DNA from: Bacilli bacterium
GTDB lineage: Bacteria > Bacillota_I > Bacilli_A > RFN20 > CAG-826
DNA length: 62,056 bases
Reading direction: 5' to 3'
Assembly: GCA_017635565.1 (NCBI GenBank)
Contig: JAGBLE010000013.1
Coordinates: 1-62,056 of the forward strand
In this document: positions 46,665 through 53,323 of the stretch, piece by piece
Layout of the letters: each line of letters opens with the position of its first letter
Position numbering within the stretch: position 1 is the stretch's first letter
Program-made: the position numbers and the translations under genes
Notes under the pieces: model-generated
What the model was told of the DNA's origin: nothing
Database searches by the model: none
The model's input: the letters and a program-made list of their open reading frames with translations, nothing else

Positions 46665-47510
46665 ATGAAAAGCGAACTAGAAGTAGACATTTATGAACAA
46701 GCTATAACAACAAAATTTCGTCAATTATTATGGTCGAGATTTTTAAAAGCCATTCACGAATTTAAACTCATCAGTGAAGGAGACAAAATTTGCGTTTGTA
46801 TTTCTGGTGGAAAAGATTCAATGATTATGGCAAAGATGTTTATGTGCTTACAAAAATTCATGAACTTTAAATTTGAAGTGAAATATCTCGTCATGAATCC
46901 TGGTTATAATTCTCTTAATCTTGAAATGATAAAAAAGAATCTAAAAACCCTCAACATCCCCGCTGAAATACATGAAACAAACATCTTTGAAATCGCTAAT
47001 GCACAAGATAAAAGTCCTTGTTTCTTATGCGCTAAAATGAGAAGAGGAGCCTTATATAACATCGCTAAAAGTATGGGGTGTAATAAAATCGCTTTAGGCC
47101 ACCATTATGATGATGTCATTGAAACAACTTTAATGAATATGTTATCAAGTGGGTCTTTCCAAACCATGCTTCCTAAACTTCATTCCACTAATTATGAAGG
47201 AATGGAATTAATTAGACCTCTATATTACATAAGAGAAAAAGATATCATCAGATTTAGCAAAGAATTTAATCTCAATTTCATTCAATGTGCCTGTCGCTTT
47301 ACTGAGAGTTACACTCATAGTGAAGACGGAATTGGAGAAAGTAGAAGAAGATATATTAAAAATTTAATTAAGGAAATAAAAAAAGAAATTCCCGATGTCG
47401 AGAAAAATCTTTTTTCTTCCGCAAACAATGTCACATTTGACATGATTCTTGGATATAAAGTAAATAGTGTTTATCATTCATATCTTGAAAATTATGATGA
47501 TGATAAATAA
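46665..47510 (+). CDS. ttcA: tRNA 2-thiocytidine biosynthesis TtcA-family protein
   Basis: SGGKDS PP-loop, SPCFLCAKMRRG, LGHHYDD, IRPL and CACR motifs. Confidence 0.88.
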   Translation: MKSELEVDIYEQAITTKFRQLLWSRFLKAIHEFKLISEGDKICVCISGGKDSMIMAKMFMCLQKFMNFKFEVKYLVMNPGYNSLNLEMIKKNLKTLNIPAEIHETNIFEIANAQDKSPCFLCAKMRRGALYNIAKSMGCNKIALGHHYDDVIETTLMNMLSSGSFQTMLPKLHSTNYEGMELIRPLYYIREKDIIRFSKEFNLNFIQCACRFTESYTHSEDGIGESRRRYIKNLIKEIKKEIPDVEKNLFSSANNVTFDMILGYKVNSVYHSYLENYDDDK

Positions 47511-47515
47511 TTGAT

Positions 47516-49648
47516 TTACTTTTTAAAAGGGTAAACCTTTTCAAAATTGCTTGCTAATTGTAAGACCGTTTCATCTTCCATATATTTACCAATTATTTGT
47601 AATCCGATTGGAAGATGATGTTTTCCTAAGCCAATAGGAACAGAGCAAGCAGGATTTCCAACAAAATTAACAATAAAGGTCATCGCAAACCCAATTAATG
47701 GATCAATTTTTTGACCGTTAATCATTTCTGGTCCTTTTGTATTATTGTTCTTATCGTTTTTAACAGGCATACAGCAGCTAACTGGAGAAATAATTAAATC
47801 ATAATCTTTAAAGACTTCATCAAAGGCGTTTTTGATTGCTTCTTTTGCTTCACCATATTTCACTAATTTATCTTTTTCTTTGATTGCTCTTTCGTTCCAA
47901 TAAAGTAATTCTTTTGGTAAACCTTTTTCTAAATCTAATCCTTTATTTTTATATTCTAAGCATTCACTTGCAGATTCTTGAGAAATCGCAATTCCCCAAA
48001 GTTCAGATAATTCATTGTTGGTGTAGCGGATATCAAAATTTACTCGATCCACTATCGCCCCATATTTTTCTAAGGATTTAGCTTTTTTATAAACTTTCTT
48101 TTTGATTTGATTTTCCACAGGGAAAATTCCAAAATCATCAGTGTAAGCAATCTTCATTCCTTTGATTGGTTTATCTAAGAATGACAAATAATCAACATTT
48201 TCTTTTTCTTCACTAAATGGGTCGCTACTATCAAAACGTTGCATTTCATTAAGTAAAATTGCAGTGTCTTTAACTGATTTTGTTAATCCACCATTTTGAC
48301 AAAATGGGAAATAATTTGGATCAACACTACTAGCGTAATGGATTGGAACAGTTCCAGTAGATGCTTTATAGCCAAATATTCCAGTCCAACTTGCAGGAAC
48401 TCTTATCGATCCTCCAGCATCTCCTCCTTCAGCAATTGGAAGTAAACCAGCGCTTACCGCAGCGGCACTTCCTCCACTTGATCCACCGGAATTATATTTT
48501 AGGTTATATGGGTTTTTAGTTGCCCCATATCTTAAATTGTCACAAGTTCCTCTAAATCCATATGTCGGAGCGTTACATTTTCCTATCGCAATTCCGCCTA
48601 ATTTTTCCATCGCTTCACAAAATAAGGAATCACTACTATCAATCCTATCAAGAGAAGGAATTCCTCCACAGCTATTACTCCATCCTTTTTTTGAATCTAA
48701 AAAATCTTTTAAGCCAAAAGGAACTCCAGCGAAAGGTCCAACATATTCTCCATTATTAATTCTTTTTTCTAATTCAAGTGCTTTACTTTCTGCCTCATCA
48801 AATTTTGTATAAGTAAAAGCATTAATCTTTTTATTATATTTATTTATTCTTCTTTCAAAATATTGAACAACTTCTAAAGGAGTTAAGATGCGGTTATTAA
48901 CTAATTCTCCTATTTCAAAGGCTGACATCTTTTCTAATTCATAAGTTGTTTTAATATATTCTTCTCCAACACGATTATCTTTCCAATATTTTGAAACTCG
49001 ATATCCAATTGGGGTAAAGATAATCTCGCTGAATAGTTCGATAATTGCTCCTAATACTGATGCACCAAGACATTGCCAAATTGTCCAACGAACTTGAATA
49101 GCAAAAGGAATATAAGGTAAAACATAGAAAGCGAGAAAGACAAATAAGAAATTATCCACTATTTGACCTAAAAAAGTCGAAATATGGCTTCTTAAAGTAA
49201 ATGCAATTCTTCCATCAGGATTACGTTTAATCCTTTTTCCAACAAAAACATTAACGTAATTATTGGTTAAGGCGGAAATAATAAAGGCAACTGTGCTCGC
49301 TAATAAAATTGACCACGAACTAAATGCAAAGACGTCATATTTAGGATTATTTAAAGCAACGCTTACTGAAAAGAAAGCTAATCCAACAATAAGATTAATA
49401 GTGACCGCTAATATCGATAAATAATTAGCAGCTTTAGCCCCAAAGTGTTTTGTCACAACATCAAGGATCAAAAAAGAGAGCCAAGATATGCATATTCCCG
49501 CATTGATTGCTAAAAACGGAAGGGAAACGAGTTGATATTGGGCGAGAATATTCATCCCAACAATTGTTAAACAAAAAAGAATAACTACAGTTTTAGGAAC
49601 GGCCTTAAACAAAAGAGTTATTCTTTTGAAAATAGAATAATTTTTCAT
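47516..49648 (-). CDS. Fusion of a VUT/YhhQ-family queuosine-precursor transporter (about aa 1-235) and an amidase-signature enzyme (about aa 237-710)
   Basis: N-part: about six TMs with NILA, D....FG, R...ST..GQ.VDN.LF; C-part: GVPFGLKD, GGSSGGSAAA, GGDAGGSIRVPA and LPIGLQIIG. Confidence 0.85.
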   Translation of the reverse strand: MKNYSIFKRITLLFKAVPKTVVILFCLTIVGMNILAQYQLVSLPFLAINAGICISWLSFLILDVVTKHFGAKAANYLSILAVTINLIVGLAFFSVSVALNNPKYDVFAFSSWSILLASTVAFIISALTNNYVNVFVGKRIKRNPDGRIAFTLRSHISTFLGQIVDNFLFVFLAFYVLPYIPFAIQVRWTIWQCLGASVLGAIIELFSEIIFTPIGYRVSKYWKDNRVGEEYIKTTYELEKMSAFEIGELVNNRILTPLEVVQYFERRINKYNKKINAFTYTKFDEAESKALELEKRINNGEYVGPFAGVPFGLKDFLDSKKGWSNSCGGIPSLDRIDSSDSLFCEAMEKLGGIAIGKCNAPTYGFRGTCDNLRYGATKNPYNLKYNSGGSSGGSAAAVSAGLLPIAEGGDAGGSIRVPASWTGIFGYKASTGTVPIHYASSVDPNYFPFCQNGGLTKSVKDTAILLNEMQRFDSSDPFSEEKENVDYLSFLDKPIKGMKIAYTDDFGIFPVENQIKKKVYKKAKSLEKYGAIVDRVNFDIRYTNNELSELWGIAISQESASECLEYKNKGLDLEKGLPKELLYWNERAIKEKDKLVKYGEAKEAIKNAFDEVFKDYDLIISPVSCCMPVKNDKNNNTKGPEMINGQKIDPLIGFAMTFIVNFVGNPACSVPIGLGKHHLPIGLQIIGKYMEDETVLQLASNFEKVYPFKK

Positions 49649-49652
49649 AAAT

Positions 49653-49703
49653 CTCCTTGGTTTTATTTTATATAGCGAAGGATTTAGAGGCCGAACTCCG
49701 CTA
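49653..49703 (-). ncRNA. Putative preQ1 class I riboswitch (atypical, long P1)
   Basis: UAGCGGAG/CUUCGCUA stem, loop UUCG...AUC, A-rich tail ending AAAACCAAGGAG (SD); upstream of a VUT transporter. Confidence 0.7.
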
Positions 49704-49709
49704 GAGGAT

Positions 49710-49737
49710 ATTATACCCCTTTAATCAAATTAAACAA
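49710..49737 (-). promoter_or_regulatory. Sigma-A promoter of the VUT-amidase gene
   Basis: TTGTTT-16 nt-TATAAT; predicted start site falls at the 5' edge of the riboswitch stem. Confidence 0.6.
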
Positions 49738-49880
49738 CATACTTATACATTCATTTATTTATTTGGGAAAAGTAATCTACCATTTTTATTAGCTATTTTG
49801 TTACTTTTAGTAAACTGTTCAAAGGAAATAAAAAGGAGGAGCCTCTTTTAACATGGGGAAACCTGGGTAAGCTTCAACTT

Positions 49881-49915
49881 AAAAAGGTGATGTGCATCAG
49901 TTCATATCACCTTTT
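49881..49915. terminator. Bidirectional terminator after the Na/Pi cotransporter
   Basis: AAAAGGTGATGTG-N8-CATATCACCTTTT. Confidence 0.8.
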
Positions 49916-49920
49916 ATTAT

Positions 49921-51567
49921 TTAAAGAGCTTTACTAATTTGATCTCCAGTTGGGTTTTGAGAAGAGAAGCCAATATTAACGATGTGGTCTCCCACTCTTT
50001 CAAGAGATGAGATAATCACGGTGTAAAATGCGCCTAATTCAATCGTACAGTTATTTTGTGATAATCTTTCAAAGTGTTTTGCGGAGAACTCTTCTTTATA
50101 AGCATCGGTTTTTTCTTCTAAAAGATTAAGTTCATCAAGTTTTTCTTGATTTGGATTTTCGAATAATTCAATCGCTAAAGAATACATCTTTTCGATTGTG
50201 TCCACCATCATTCTAAGTTCATTTCTTGCTTCTGAAGAAAAATGCAATTCATCATTTTTCATTTTTAATGAGTCATCAGCGAAGTTTTTCGCATAGTCTC
50301 CAATTCTTTCAATATCATTTACAACATGGAAATAACTACCAAGAATTTTTTCATCTTTTTCACCAAGCAAAGGTGAAAGCTTAATTAAAAATTTAGTGAT
50401 AACGTTATTCATATAATCGATTTCATCTTCATGAACGCCAATTTCTTTAATGTTATCCCCTTTTTGAGAATATAATTCATCAATTCCTTTTTTAAAGTTT
50501 TCTTGGGCAAGTAACGCCATGTTTAATATTTCTTTCTTTACTTGTTCCATTGCAATTGATGGGGTTTGTAATAATCTTTCATCAATATATTTGATAACAT
50601 GTTCTCTTTCATCTTTTTTATCTTTGATAACTATTTCAGCAATTCTCACTAAATATTTAATGAAAGGAATAAGTATTAATGTCGTTGAAACATTAAATGC
50701 GATATGGAAAATTGCGATTTCAATCGCATAGTTATTACCAAAAGCGTTATTTAAAAAATTAACGATTGGGGTTTTAAAAATCCAAACAAATGTTGTGAAT
50801 ATAGTAACTCCAATAACATTAAACAATAAGTGAATTAAGCCGGTTCTTTTTGCATTTGCACTAGTGCCAATCGTAGCAATTAAAGCTGTAATACAAGTTC
50901 CAATATTTGCTCCTAGAATAATAAATAATCCACTTTCAAAAGGCATTGCCCCACTTGACACCATAACAATAACTAAACCAGTCATCGCGCTTGAAGACTG
51001 CATTATCGCGGTAAAAACAATGCCTAAAAGTAATAAGAGTAAAGGAAAATCAATTCCAGAGAAAATATTCTGTATTGCTTCTTTAATTTCGTTGTTGTTA
51101 AAAGAAGCGCTCATTAAATCAAGGCCAATAAAAATTAAGCCAAGACCACAAATAATTCCACCTATATTTTTGACTTTGTCATTTTTGAAAAATTGCATCA
51201 TTACACCAATAAAGGCTAATACTGATGCATATATTCCAACATCAAAGCTTGATAATGAGACTAATAAGCCAGTAACGGTCGTACCAATGTTAGCGCCCAT
51301 AATGACTGATGTCGCTTGGAAGAGAGTCATCGTTCCAATATTAACAAAACCAATCGTCATCACGGTTGTAGCGGCACTTGATTGAATGATTCCAGTAACA
51401 AGAGCACCAATACCAACGCCTAAAAAACGATTCTTTGTAATCTTGCCAATTAATCTTTTCATTCCTGGGCCAGCAACTTTTTGCAAAGAATGAGAAAGCA
51501 TATTCATTCCAACAATAAAGACACCAACTCCAGCAAGTAACGCCAAAATGCTATTAAATATGACCAT
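49921..51567 (-). CDS. Na+/Pi cotransporter with C-terminal PhoU-like domains
   Basis: QSSAAT/QSSSA and GANIGT repeats; DIERIGD and LERVGDH PhoU motifs; start moved to ATG 51567. Confidence 0.93.
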   Translation of the reverse strand: MVIFNSILALLAGVGVFIVGMNMLSHSLQKVAGPGMKRLIGKITKNRFLGVGIGALVTGIIQSSAATTVMTIGFVNIGTMTLFQATSVIMGANIGTTVTGLLVSLSSFDVGIYASVLAFIGVMMQFFKNDKVKNIGGIICGLGLIFIGLDLMSASFNNNEIKEAIQNIFSGIDFPLLLLLLGIVFTAIMQSSSAMTGLVIVMVSSGAMPFESGLFIILGANIGTCITALIATIGTSANAKRTGLIHLLFNVIGVTIFTTFVWIFKTPIVNFLNNAFGNNYAIEIAIFHIAFNVSTTLILIPFIKYLVRIAEIVIKDKKDEREHVIKYIDERLLQTPSIAMEQVKKEILNMALLAQENFKKGIDELYSQKGDNIKEIGVHEDEIDYMNNVITKFLIKLSPLLGEKDEKILGSYFHVVNDIERIGDYAKNFADDSLKMKNDELHFSSEARNELRMMVDTIEKMYSLAIELFENPNQEKLDELNLLEEKTDAYKEEFSAKHFERLSQNNCTIELGAFYTVIISSLERVGDHIVNIGFSSQNPTGDQISKAL

Positions 51568-51718: not shown

Positions 51719-53323
51719 TTATTTGATTCTTTCTGTGGTTTCTTTATCAAAGAAATAAAGTATGTCTTTATTGATGTTAAATGTTATCTCTGCTTCACTT
51801 TTTGGTTTGGTTTTTGTTGAAGATTTAAGAAGCAATCTTTGACCATTTAAATAAGTATAGATAACCAATTCATATCCTAATAATTCAACATAATCACAGG
51901 TAGAAGAGATGTCATTAGATAAATCTTCGTTTGTCGCTTCACCCTTAAGATAAATATTTTCTGGTCTAATACCTAAAACAACTTCTCCTTCATGATTTTC
52001 TAATAACTTTTGTTGTTCTTTAGTTAGATCAATCTTAATTTCTTTTTCACCAGGTATAACAAAATATCCATTTTCATATTTACCATCGAGGAAATTCATA
52101 CTTGGAGAACCGATAAATCCACCGACAAACATATTGACAGGATTGTCATATACTTCTGTTGGTGTTCCGATTTGTTGAACATATCCATCTTTCATAATGA
52201 CGATACGGTCCGCCATTGTCATCGCTTCAGTTTGGTCATGAGTAACATAAATTGTTGTCGCTCCAACTCTTTCGTGTATTTTAATGATTTCGCTTCTGGT
52301 TTGAACTCTTAATTTTGCATCCAAGTTACTTAAAGGTTCATCCATTAGGAAGACCTTTGGATGTCTAACAATTGCTCTACCAAGGGCTACTCTTTGACGT
52401 TGGCCACCACTTAATGCAGCAGGTTTTCTAAATAAGAACCTCTCTAAATCTAATATCTTAGATGCTTTATAAACTTCTAAATCAATTTCATAAGCACTAT
52501 ATTTGCGATATTTAGTCAAAGGCACTTCATTATTTTTGAGATATTCTAATTCTTTTTCTAAGTTCTGAATTTGGTTTTCTTTTTGAGAAACGCTATCTTC
52601 AAAAATCTTTATCGCCAATTCTAATTTCTCAATATATTTCTTTTCTTTTTCAGCTTTTTTCTCATCAGCTTCATTACTGAGTTCAACTTTTGTTTTTTCT
52701 AATTCATCTTTATATAAAGCAAGTTCTTTATTGTTTTTTTGAACTTGATTAGATATTTTTTTGATTTCATTTTCGTGTTCTTTAATATCTAGTTCATTAA
52801 TTCCAATCTTTTGTTTATATAGTTGTTTAATTTTTTCTTCGTTAGCGAATATTTCTTGATAGATTTGATCTCTTTCTAGTAGCAAATCCTTAGCTTCGTT
52901 TTTCTTACTTATTTGGCGATTAAGCTTTTTAATTTGTCTTAAAAGTTCGTAATTCTTTTTTCTGATTTCATCAATTTCTGGATTTTCTTCGTAAATTGGG
53001 AATTTGACTTTTCTTAATTTCAAAGCAAACGCCATATTTTGATAGACAGTCATATGAGGATAAAGAGCGTAGCTTTGGAAAACCATCGCGATATCACGGT
53101 CTTTAGGAGCGACATTATTAACAAATAAGCCATCAATTAATAATTGACCACTTGTAATATCTTCAAGTCCTGCCACCATTCTTAATGTTGTGGATTTACC
53201 ACATCCAGAAGGTCCAACAAAAACAATGAATTCTTTGTCTTTAACTTCTAAATTGAAATTAAATACTGCTTGAACACCATTTGGATAAATTTTATTGATA
53301 TCCTTAAATAAGAGATTTGCCAT
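51719..53323 (-). CDS. Sugar ABC transporter ATPase (MsmX/UgpC-like) with a large coiled-coil insertion
   Basis: GPSGCGKS, MVFQSYALYPHM, LSGGQRQR, DEPLSNLDAKLR and TOBE tail. Confidence 0.93.
   Translation of the reverse strand: MANLLFKDINKIYPNGVQAVFNFNLEVKDKEFIVFVGPSGCGKSTTLRMVAGLEDITSGQLLIDGLFVNNVAPKDRDIAMVFQSYALYPHMTVYQNMAFALKLRKVKFPIYEENPEIDEIRKKNYELLRQIKKLNRQISKKNEAKDLLLERDQIYQEIFANEEKIKQLYKQKIGINELDIKEHENEIKKISNQVQKNNKELALYKDELEKTKVELSNEADEKKAEKEKKYIEKLELAIKIFEDSVSQKENQIQNLEKELEYLKNNEVPLTKYRKYSAYEIDLEVYKASKILDLERFLFRKPAALSGGQRQRVALGRAIVRHPKVFLMDEPLSNLDAKLRVQTRSEIIKIHERVGATTIYVTHDQTEAMTMADRIVIMKDGYVQQIGTPTEVYDNPVNMFVGGFIGSPSMNFLDGKYENGYFVIPGEKEIKIDLTKEQQKLLENHEGEVVLGIRPENIYLKGEATNEDLSNDISSTCDYVELLGYELVIYTYLNGQRLLLKSSTKTKPKSEAEITFNINKDILYFFDKETTERIK

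Follow-up and report, generated by a model that had tools for sequence, protein, structure and literature searches.

Many gut bacteria, and all animals, must scavenge queuosine, a modification of tRNA. Bacteria are known to salvage it either by direct uptake of preQ0 and preQ1 or with a transporter plus the enzymes QueK and QueL. YhhQ (COG1738, Vut_1, TIGR00697) is reportedly the preQ0/preQ1 importer of E. coli, and queuine salvage operons, said to have been described by Yuan et al. in 2019, combine a transporter with QueK (a nucleoside hydrolase) and QueL (a radical-SAM queuine lyase). Here we analyze a stretch of 62,056 nucleotides from a Bacilli bacterium (contig JAGBLE010000013.1; we call this whole stretch the window) in which a gene of 710 codons joins a YhhQ-type membrane domain to an amidase-signature enzyme. 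This fusion gene stands behind a leader RNA that is probably a variant preQ1-I riboswitch. The explanation that fits best as a whole, and which we hold with moderate confidence, is that the gene encodes a switch-controlled importer-amidase of the preQ1 regulon that salvages 7-deazaguanines, with N-acylated preQ1 as the favored substrate.

The portion of PMC11625349 available to us states that YhhQ-family genes often lie behind preQ1 riboswitches. The importer in the window resembles YhhQ in its family, in its control by a preQ1-type leader, and in its expected role of supplying TGT; it differs in being fused to an amidase-signature enzyme, with which its relatives are translationally coupled. 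Like the QueK/QueL operons, the proposed system would combine import, cytoplasmic conversion to preQ1, and use by TGT, with no de novo synthesis. Its enzyme belongs to a different family, however, and the proposed reaction is the hydrolysis of an amide: we found no domain of QueK, QueL, or Qng1 (nucleoside hydrolase or IU_nuc_hydro, radical SAM, or DUF2419) in the fusion protein, whose only matches at E ≤ 0.001 were Vut_1 and Amidase. The kind of salvage system is known; what is new in it is the enzyme partner and the riboswitch variant.

The full-text literature that we searched, which does not cover most subscription journals or supplements, does not tie YhhQ/COG1738 or 7-deazaguanines to such an amidase and places no amidase-signature enzyme in queuosine salvage (as an earlier note on this DNA, made by a model from the letters alone, had also supposed). 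Nor did it yield a further preQ1 class, or an amide metabolite pool or enzyme of the kind proposed here. The closest described gene clusters in phages are those for 7-deazaguanine modification of DNA, which hold FolE, QueD, QueE, QueC, QueF, and DpdA (PMC10516641, available part). In our data, vut and the amidase are found within que clusters of this kind on phage contigs, and the words amidase and transporter occur 0 times in the available text of that paper. The window differs from those clusters in being bacterial and in serving tRNA modification.

On the minus strand, positions 47516..49648 form a single open reading frame with an ATG start. The earlier note had assigned the system to positions 47516-49703; the reading frame is as it described but reaches only to 49648, and the remainder up to 49703 belongs to the leader. 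The features of the gene and its leader are:

49710..49715, minus strand: candidate -10 box TATAAT (read from the sequence)
49650..49707, minus strand: conserved leader RNA, a putative riboswitch that is a type-I-like variant of preQ1-I (match to model R1, 85.3 bits)
49696..49702, minus strand: 5' strand of helix P1, AGCGGAG (minimum free energy fold and covariation), followed by UUC at 49693-49695
49681..49692, minus strand: enlarged loop L2, with GG (possible P2 strand), CCUCU (possible anti-Shine-Dalgarno), and UC before the P1 3' strand
49674..49680, minus strand: 3' strand of P1, CTTCGCT (covariation)
49659..49673, minus strand: A-rich tail L3 (13 nt) ending in AAAAC, then C (by comparison with the Rfam consensus and the type I description)
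49653..49658, minus strand: Shine-Dalgarno AAGGAG, within the conserved motif and 4 nt before the ATG (invariant in 11 of 11)
48995..49648, minus strand: Vut_1/YhhQ-type queuosine-precursor transporter domain, residues 1-218, with about six transmembrane segments (Pfam, TIGR00697, hydropathy)
48875..48994, minus strand: Lys/Arg-rich linker, residues 219-258 (alignment, hydropathy)
47561..48874, minus strand: amidase-signature domain, residues 259-696, predicted to be cytoplasmic, with triad K314/S390/S414 (Pfam, alignment)

Both halves of the protein are complete by the usual models. Vut_1 (PF02592) matches residues 50-218 with 77.7 bits (cut-off 27.2). On its own, the Vut half also exceeds the cut-off of the NCBIfam model TIGR00697 ("queuosine precursor transporter"), with 61.5 bits against 50.95. 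(Three relatives miss that cut-off, with 32.5, 48.3, and 42 bits.) Amidase (PF01425) matches residues 259-696 with 285.6 bits (cut-off 27), covering all of profile positions 1-445 of 445. The motifs GLKD (312-315), GGSSGGS (388-394), and GGSIRVPA (412-419) are all present, and K314, S390, and S414, which we take to be the Lys/cis-Ser/Ser catalytic triad, are invariant in 26 of 26 aligned relatives. Thus, the domains, the motifs, and the conservation of the triad bear out the description of the gene in the earlier note as a VUT domain joined to an amidase with an intact triad. A Kyte-Doolittle scan, which is a rough method, gives six hydrophobic segments; alternate loops and the linker are rich in Lys and Arg, which predicts that the amidase lies on the cytoplasmic side.

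The amidase half does not fall into a named group. No NCBIfam model for a named amidase-signature subfamily (GatA, AtzE, allophanate hydrolase, indoleacetamide hydrolase, and others) matched above its cut-off; the best was PRK06169 (285 bits, cut-off 506), and GatA scored 219 bits (cut-off 481). A search of a protein atlas returned generic amidase clusters only. The host genome (G000) has another amidase-family gene (G000:C2) that is 33% identical to the fusion amidase and is probably gatA. The nearest solved relative is an aryl acylamidase (PDB 4YJ6/4YJI; E = 4.9e-98, residues 3-469 of 471). By sequence likeness, the whole domain aligns and the triad is the same, but the aryl acylamidase is a soluble enzyme for N-acetyl-arylamine xenobiotics that has neither a membrane partner nor a riboswitch and is not linked to queuosine.

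The leader is strongly conserved within the genus. In 11 of 12 genus loci, 42 of the 58 columns of the motif are invariant, whether the vut gene that follows is fused or unfused, and nine species of the genus whose vut has no amidase have the same leader. With a covariance model built from these genus leaders (R1), we found a match just upstream of vut in 50 of the 70 genes from metagenome loci whose upstream sequence reaches 90 nt or more. R1 also matches in G123, which belongs to a different family of the same order, and the motif is present in 2 of 151 sampled genomes of the order (the sample held just 3 other genomes of the genus). We also saw that in two gut metagenome runs, the core of the motif (49652-49702) recurs in many other contigs, with dissimilar flanks to either side, and that its summed contig depth far exceeds that of the remaining gene; the flanks imply that many other organisms there carry the motif. 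None of the sequencing runs listed as holding this DNA is an RNA run.

Helix P1 has good support. Its 7 base pairs are paired in 96.6% of cells, with changes on both sides in 5 of the 7 pairs, while 0 of 500 shuffles scored as high and slid controls gave 40-51%; these figures come from an alignment fitted to the model, in which the variation is mostly between two or three lineages, and they carry no probability. The candidate -10 box would put the start of the transcript at about the foot of P1. It was not listed by a consensus promoter scan because no -35 hexamer reaches 4 of 6 matches.

We compared the leader to the type I class of preQ1-I riboswitches (RF00522). The marks of this type are UU atop the 5' strand of P1, UC before its 3' strand, an A-rich L3, and a conserved tail of C and then UA, as given in the available portions of PMC11625349 and PMC8752633. 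The Rfam PreQ1 consensus runs GG-UUCG, then UC-CC, then AUAAAAAACUAAGG. In the window, the order is GAG-UUCG, UC before the P1 3' strand, a 13-nt A-rich stretch ending in AAAAC, CA, and AAGGAG, so that UUCG, UC, and AAAAC are shared with the consensus. As in the Carnobacterium antarcticum structure (PMC8752633, available part), the layout would be H-type, with P1, the UU, the UC, the A-rich L3, and the C of the tail; also as in preQ1-I, the Shine-Dalgarno lies within the 3' end and the RNA is upstream of queuosine genes. The leader differs in that P1 has 7 base pairs instead of about 5, L2 is 3 nt longer, L3 is about 5 nt longer, the tail has CCA in place of CUA, and there is no match to Rfam at E ≤ 10. 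The longer P1, loop, and tail, together with the CCA, explain why the leader escapes the 45-position Rfam model.

Leaders of relatives link this RNA to ordinary preQ1-I. Of the 20 vut genes that R1 does not match, many have a leader that resembles an ordinary type I aptamer. Below the gathering score of 39 bits, the Rfam PreQ1 model finds four of these leaders directly upstream of vut-amidase pairs, in L095 (33.9 bits), L098 (26.5), and L077 and L073 (24.8). In the host's order, similar leaders scoring 24-27.5 bits stand before queT (two genomes) and before queC-vut (one genome). From this comparison, the leader is probably a variant, type-I-like preQ1-I riboswitch that descends from type I. 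The suggestion in the earlier note that it looks like a preQ1 aptamer thus stands in part: the type I marks and the covarying P1 agree with it, but Rfam does not recognize the RNA, which makes it a variant and not a standard aptamer. A match to preQ1-II in L031 (E = 4.8) was treated as chance.

Two further observations concern leaders elsewhere. In L055 (6174-6354) and L099 (7717-7929), two tandem copies of the leader precede one vut, and L055 has a third copy before a second vut; these may be tandem riboswitch arrangements. The leaders of seven phage loci (L108, L110, L115, L118, L121, L124, and L030:2600-2700) have UUUUG in place of UUCG after P1 and UUCCUU in the loop, which by sequence makes them one more variant of this RNA.

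The pair joined in the fusion is usually encoded by two separate genes. A metagenome scan whose query was an alignment of both forms, fused and unfused, gave 199 relatives, of which we analyzed the best 80. In 71 of these 80 loci, vut is directly upstream of the amidase on the same strand; 3 are fused, 5 are cut by the end of the contig, and in 1, vut is downstream of the amidase. The gap between the two genes of the 71 loci has a median of 6 nt and is at most 60 nt in 67 of them, with an overlap in 15. A Pfam tally of the 84 immediate neighbors (25 leading families of 75) gave no recurring third family beside the pair, which looks like a self-contained module. The pair is common in animal-gut bacteria and large phages. 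In a sample of 399 scored genomes of the host's phylum, we saw no close relative of the amidase besides that of the host, and a contig search with the single amidase sequence gave only two weak matches, of 25% identity.

Where queuosine genes do adjoin the pair, they form clusters with it. BLAST of all the open reading frames in the loci against TGT, QueA, QueH, QueC, and QueT matched in L054 only, where the genes run queF-queC-queD-queE-folE-vut-amidase on one strand. Furthermore, among viral contigs, 21 loci have an amidase of at least 42% identity, with vut upstream on the same strand in 20 of the 21 and QueC in 8. On the phage contig L112, the order is an R1-like leader, vut, queF, a homing-endonuclease gene, queC, queD, queE, a small gene, folE, and the amidase. 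So close homologs of the amidase do stand near queuosine genes, and the earlier note had counted their never doing so among the grounds for giving up its proposal. Together, the sub-threshold preQ1-I leaders, the leaders of queT and queC, and the que clusters imply that the pair belongs to the preQ1 regulon in both bacteria and phages. A search of 5 viral records for TGT/DpdA with PF01702 found none, which is a weak test because phage DpdA proteins are divergent.

Several of the loci have peculiarities of their own. The QueF of L054 (433-1941) is a protein of 503 amino acids with an intein splicing domain ahead of the QueF domain. Viral loci L112, L115, and L118 have homing-endonuclease-type genes (NUMOD4, NUMOD3, HNH) between que genes and beside the amidase. 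In L055 (6443-7862) and L099 (10278-11831), a second vut followed by a short-chain dehydrogenase/reductase gene adjoins the vut-amidase pair. This may be another module of an importer plus an enzyme, and it hints at a wider family of salvage modules in which an importer is paired with a converting enzyme. In the host's genus, the vut matches of G002 (L011) and G017 contain 3 stop codons and 1 stop codon, respectively, and may be decaying copies.

The gene content of the hosts indicates why such an importer would be needed. Three genomes carry the pair (G000, G022, and G123, which are 73, 95, and 91% complete). The host genome itself has 1.07 Mb and about 31% G+C; its tgt, queA, and queH genes are side by side on contig 20, and its single Vut_1 gene is the fusion. 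We found tgt in 6 of 6 genomes tested (G000, G022, G009, G005, G015, and G123) and both queA and queH in 5 of 5. QueF was found in 0 of 10 genomes (those six plus G001, G003, G014, and G018), these 10 gave no full-length QueC (the best match had 22.9 bits over 47 positions), and QueT was found in 0 of 5 (G000, G022, G009, G005, and G015). The inventory of tgt, queA, queC, and queF that had been called for therefore gives the first two as present and the last two as not found; the absence of tgt, which would have spoken against a role in queuosine salvage, is not what we see. Because tgt, queA, and queH are present and queC, queF, and queT were not found, the host must import preQ1, and the presence of QueA and QueH means that these hosts need preQ1 itself. 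As far as our searches show, G000, G022, and G123 are preQ1 auxotrophs, and the fusion is the only recognizable preQ1 importer of its host.

A role of the module in 7-deazaguanine salvage is well supported by this evidence. As for the mechanism, we propose that the fusion is a YhhQ/Vut_1 importer of single origin with an amidase-signature hydrolase on the cytoplasmic side, behind a variant preQ1-I leader. The membrane domain would import preQ1, an amide-bearing 7-deazaguanine, or both, and the amidase at the cytoplasmic face would cleave the amide, which would trap the cargo and yield a base that TGT could use. The favored substrate would be an N-acylated preQ1, such as 7-(formylamino)methyl-7-deazaguanine, with preQ1 and a carboxylate as the products. 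Judging from the architecture of the leader, plentiful preQ1 would bind it, stabilize the pseudoknot, and hide the Shine-Dalgarno, so that translation would be turned off.

We favor an amide on the aminomethyl nitrogen of preQ1 because its hydrolysis would give preQ1 directly, in hosts without QueC or QueF. Aryl acylamidases free an amine from an N-acyl group. Formyl-preQ1 is a natural base that replaces all of the G in the DNA of one phage, according to the available part of PMC10516641. By analogy, the kinship with aryl acylamidases and the existence of natural N-formyl-preQ1 make an N-acyl-preQ1 substrate plausible, and we claim no more than that.

Several results weigh against this reading. 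First, Rfam does not recognize the leader: at the gathering score, it finds no riboswitch in the window or in 21 related loci, its preQ1 families have no match in 49500-50100 even at E ≤ 10, and RF00522 exceeds its cut-off (39 bits) in 0 of 41 relatives, with every related leader below the gathering score. Second, parts of the expected structure are not supported by covariation: the GG/CC pairs of P2 are 96% paired but nearly invariant, with one CG swap, and the candidate anti-Shine-Dalgarno helix is 72% paired with no real covariation. The minimum free energy of the leader is no better than that of shuffled sequences (z = 0.05), by a fold that cannot model pseudoknots. Third, the frequency of the pair among the 80 metagenome loci reflects a ranking against the fused query that favors loci with both halves; the same scan did still list amidase-only fragments of 47-49% identity, each of them at a contig edge. 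Most loci have no adjoining queuosine gene (1 of the 80 does), and their neighbors are heterogeneous. Fourth, nine species of the genus and one genome of a neighboring family have vut with no amidase, which means that the amidase is not required for basic import; and phages with a complete de novo pathway to preQ1 also have the amidase, which therefore is not solely a device of auxotrophs. Fifth, the inventory of the host covers tgt, queA, queH, queC, queF, and queT and is limited by the completeness of G000. Finally, the nearest characterized relative acts on xenobiotic anilides, and it is the gene content of the hosts that favors the candidate substrate.

Among other explanations of the function, the one that survives best is that the amidase acts at C7, on a carboxamide, amidine, or ester: it would convert 7-amido-7-deazaguanine (ADG) to 7-carboxy-7-deazaguanine (CDG), archaeosine base to ADG, or glutamyl-queuine to queuine. 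The evidence from the regulon and the operons suits this reaction as well as it suits the cleavage of N-acyl-preQ1, and the phage and L054 clusters put the amidase together with QueC and QueF, which could process CDG or ADG. However, none of the three pair-carrying genomes (73, 95, and 91% complete) has a QueC above the cut-off or a QueF, and without these enzymes CDG, ADG, and preQ0 are dead ends for tgt-queA-queH hosts. QueC reportedly uses ADG itself, which would make an ADG amidase redundant, and queuine would still need a lyase. We therefore consider it unlikely: the substrates proposed in the earlier note (7-amido-7-deazaguanine, archaeosine base, and glutamyl-queuine) fit poorly, as they would lead to CDG, ADG, preQ0, or queuine in hosts without QueC and QueF.

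Alternatively, the Vut domain might carry a cargo with no relation to 7-deazaguanines, either an amide vitamin or a xenobiotic N-acyl amine, and the leader might respond to a ligand other than preQ1. This would account for the failure of Rfam to recognize the leader, for a xenobiotic aryl acylamidase as the closest solved relative, for flanking genes that mostly lack a link to queuosine, and for the Vut partners of some relatives that fall below the TIGR00697 cut-off. Yet the leader keeps the marks of preQ1-I type I, orthologous operons have preQ1-I leaders that Rfam can detect (below threshold), the pair is found inside queF/C/D/E-folE clusters, the Vut domain of the window passes the queuosine-precursor transporter model, and the host, which depends on preQ1 import, shows no candidate importer besides this one. 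We regard an unrelated cargo as quite unlikely.

A third idea is damage control: the importer would be promiscuous, and the amidase would destroy an amide look-alike that is mis-inserted by TGT or that jams the switch. The amidase does look accessory, given that other species of the genus have only vut behind this leader, and a fusion of transporter and enzyme would suit the clearing of a co-imported compound. But the likeliest competitor, preQ0, is a nitrile and not an amide, and the tight and often translationally coupled operon (71 of 80), along with its place in preQ1 clusters, looks like supply. We judge damage control to be very improbable.

These results add to salvage a widely distributed third component, the amidase, which is linked to the importer through a shared operon, through translational coupling, and here through fusion. 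They imply that gut communities contain a circulating amide derivative of a 7-deazaguanine that repays salvage. We put forward tentatively a wider proposal: that the amidase defines an undescribed branch of 7-deazaguanine metabolism in which amide-capped preQ1 (N-formyl-preQ1 shed by phage DNA or another N-acyl-preQ1) is a common currency of the gut, imported by Vut and then uncapped, and used by bacterial auxotrophs for the queuosine of tRNA and by large phages for DNA modification, with the leader as a fourth, enlarged subtype of preQ1-I. Because the Rfam preQ1-I model misses these common enlarged leaders, the queuosine regulons of gut genomes and phages are under-annotated.

The fusion is a genuine and derived form of the widespread two-gene vut-amidase operon. 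There is no stop codon at the junction, and contigs from four runs of three studies span 48925-48950 with zero inserted or deleted letters (X2, 48344-49097; X3, 48121-49402; X4, 48793-49509; X5, 48882-49667), which supplies the check on continuity that the earlier note had asked for. We searched a collection of 5.8 billion proteins and listed the best 120 matches: among these, 19 clusters have both domains (697-743 amino acids, 53-100% identity), and the remaining 101 are amidases alone (472-511 amino acids), which are 48-56% identical across the amidase part. A full-length fusion is also present in a second species among 41 related genomes (G022, 58% identity), and the fused form is found in 3 metagenome contigs, so it is not peculiar to this assembly, which would have counted against the proposal of the earlier note.

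In a maximum-likelihood tree of 98 amidase domains (in which metagenome amidases were limited to those of more than 400 amino acids, one per 90% cluster), 22 fused rows fall on one side of a branch with SH-aLRT support of 99. The sole "separate" row within the fused clade, L036, is a contig that begins inside the gene. This single supported clade implies that the fusion arose once and then diversified. In unfused relatives, the region that matches the linker comprises the last part of vut, its stop codon, and the first part of the amidase gene. Among 15 unfused pairs examined, the two genes are in frame in 10, and in 9 of these they are separated by a stop codon, 3 nt, and ATG; with only a stop and three bases between in-frame genes, the loss of one stop codon would create the fusion. 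An assembly or sequencing artifact, or a decaying and functionless read-through, might seem possible because one error could mimic a fusion where the two genes share a frame, as in 10 of the 15 unfused relatives, 9 with just a stop and 3 nt in between, but the four runs from three studies that bridge the junction without an indel, the 19 fused clusters that reach down to 53% identity, the catalytic residues that are all kept in the 9 aligned, and the one old and diversified clade of the tree rule this out, and we give it hardly any credence.

The nearest relatives of the Vut half are not those of the amidase half. We compared it to two unfused groups, L023-L028 and L029, L055, and L059. The Vut half is closest to one of these groups (55-58%), whose amidases are 47-48% identical to that of the fusion, whereas the amidase half is 52-53% identical to the other group, whose Vut is only 38-40% identical. 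This suggests either a mosaic origin or unequal rates of evolution.

The neighbors of the fusion gene in the window do not seem to belong to the module:

46665..47510, plus strand: PP-loop TtcA-like gene, not part of the module (NCBIfam TtcA, 200 bits, below the cut-off of 272)
49882..49915, no strand assigned: terminator-like hairpin that ends the upstream Na/Pi-cotransporter-PhoU gene (from the sequence)

The TtcA-like gene is convergent with the fusion gene and so is not co-transcribed with it, and no neighbor family recurs at the other loci among the 25 leading families tallied. The earlier note was right that a ttcA-like gene adjoins the fusion, and this adjacency is incidental. The hairpin at 49882..49915 separates the Na/Pi-cotransporter-PhoU gene from the module. 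Elsewhere in the window, the minus strand of 51719-53323 encodes a MalK/UgpC-like ABC ATPase of 534 amino acids, whose translation has an apparent insertion of about 190 amino acids, rich in Lys and Glu and resembling a coiled coil, between Walker A and LSGGQ.

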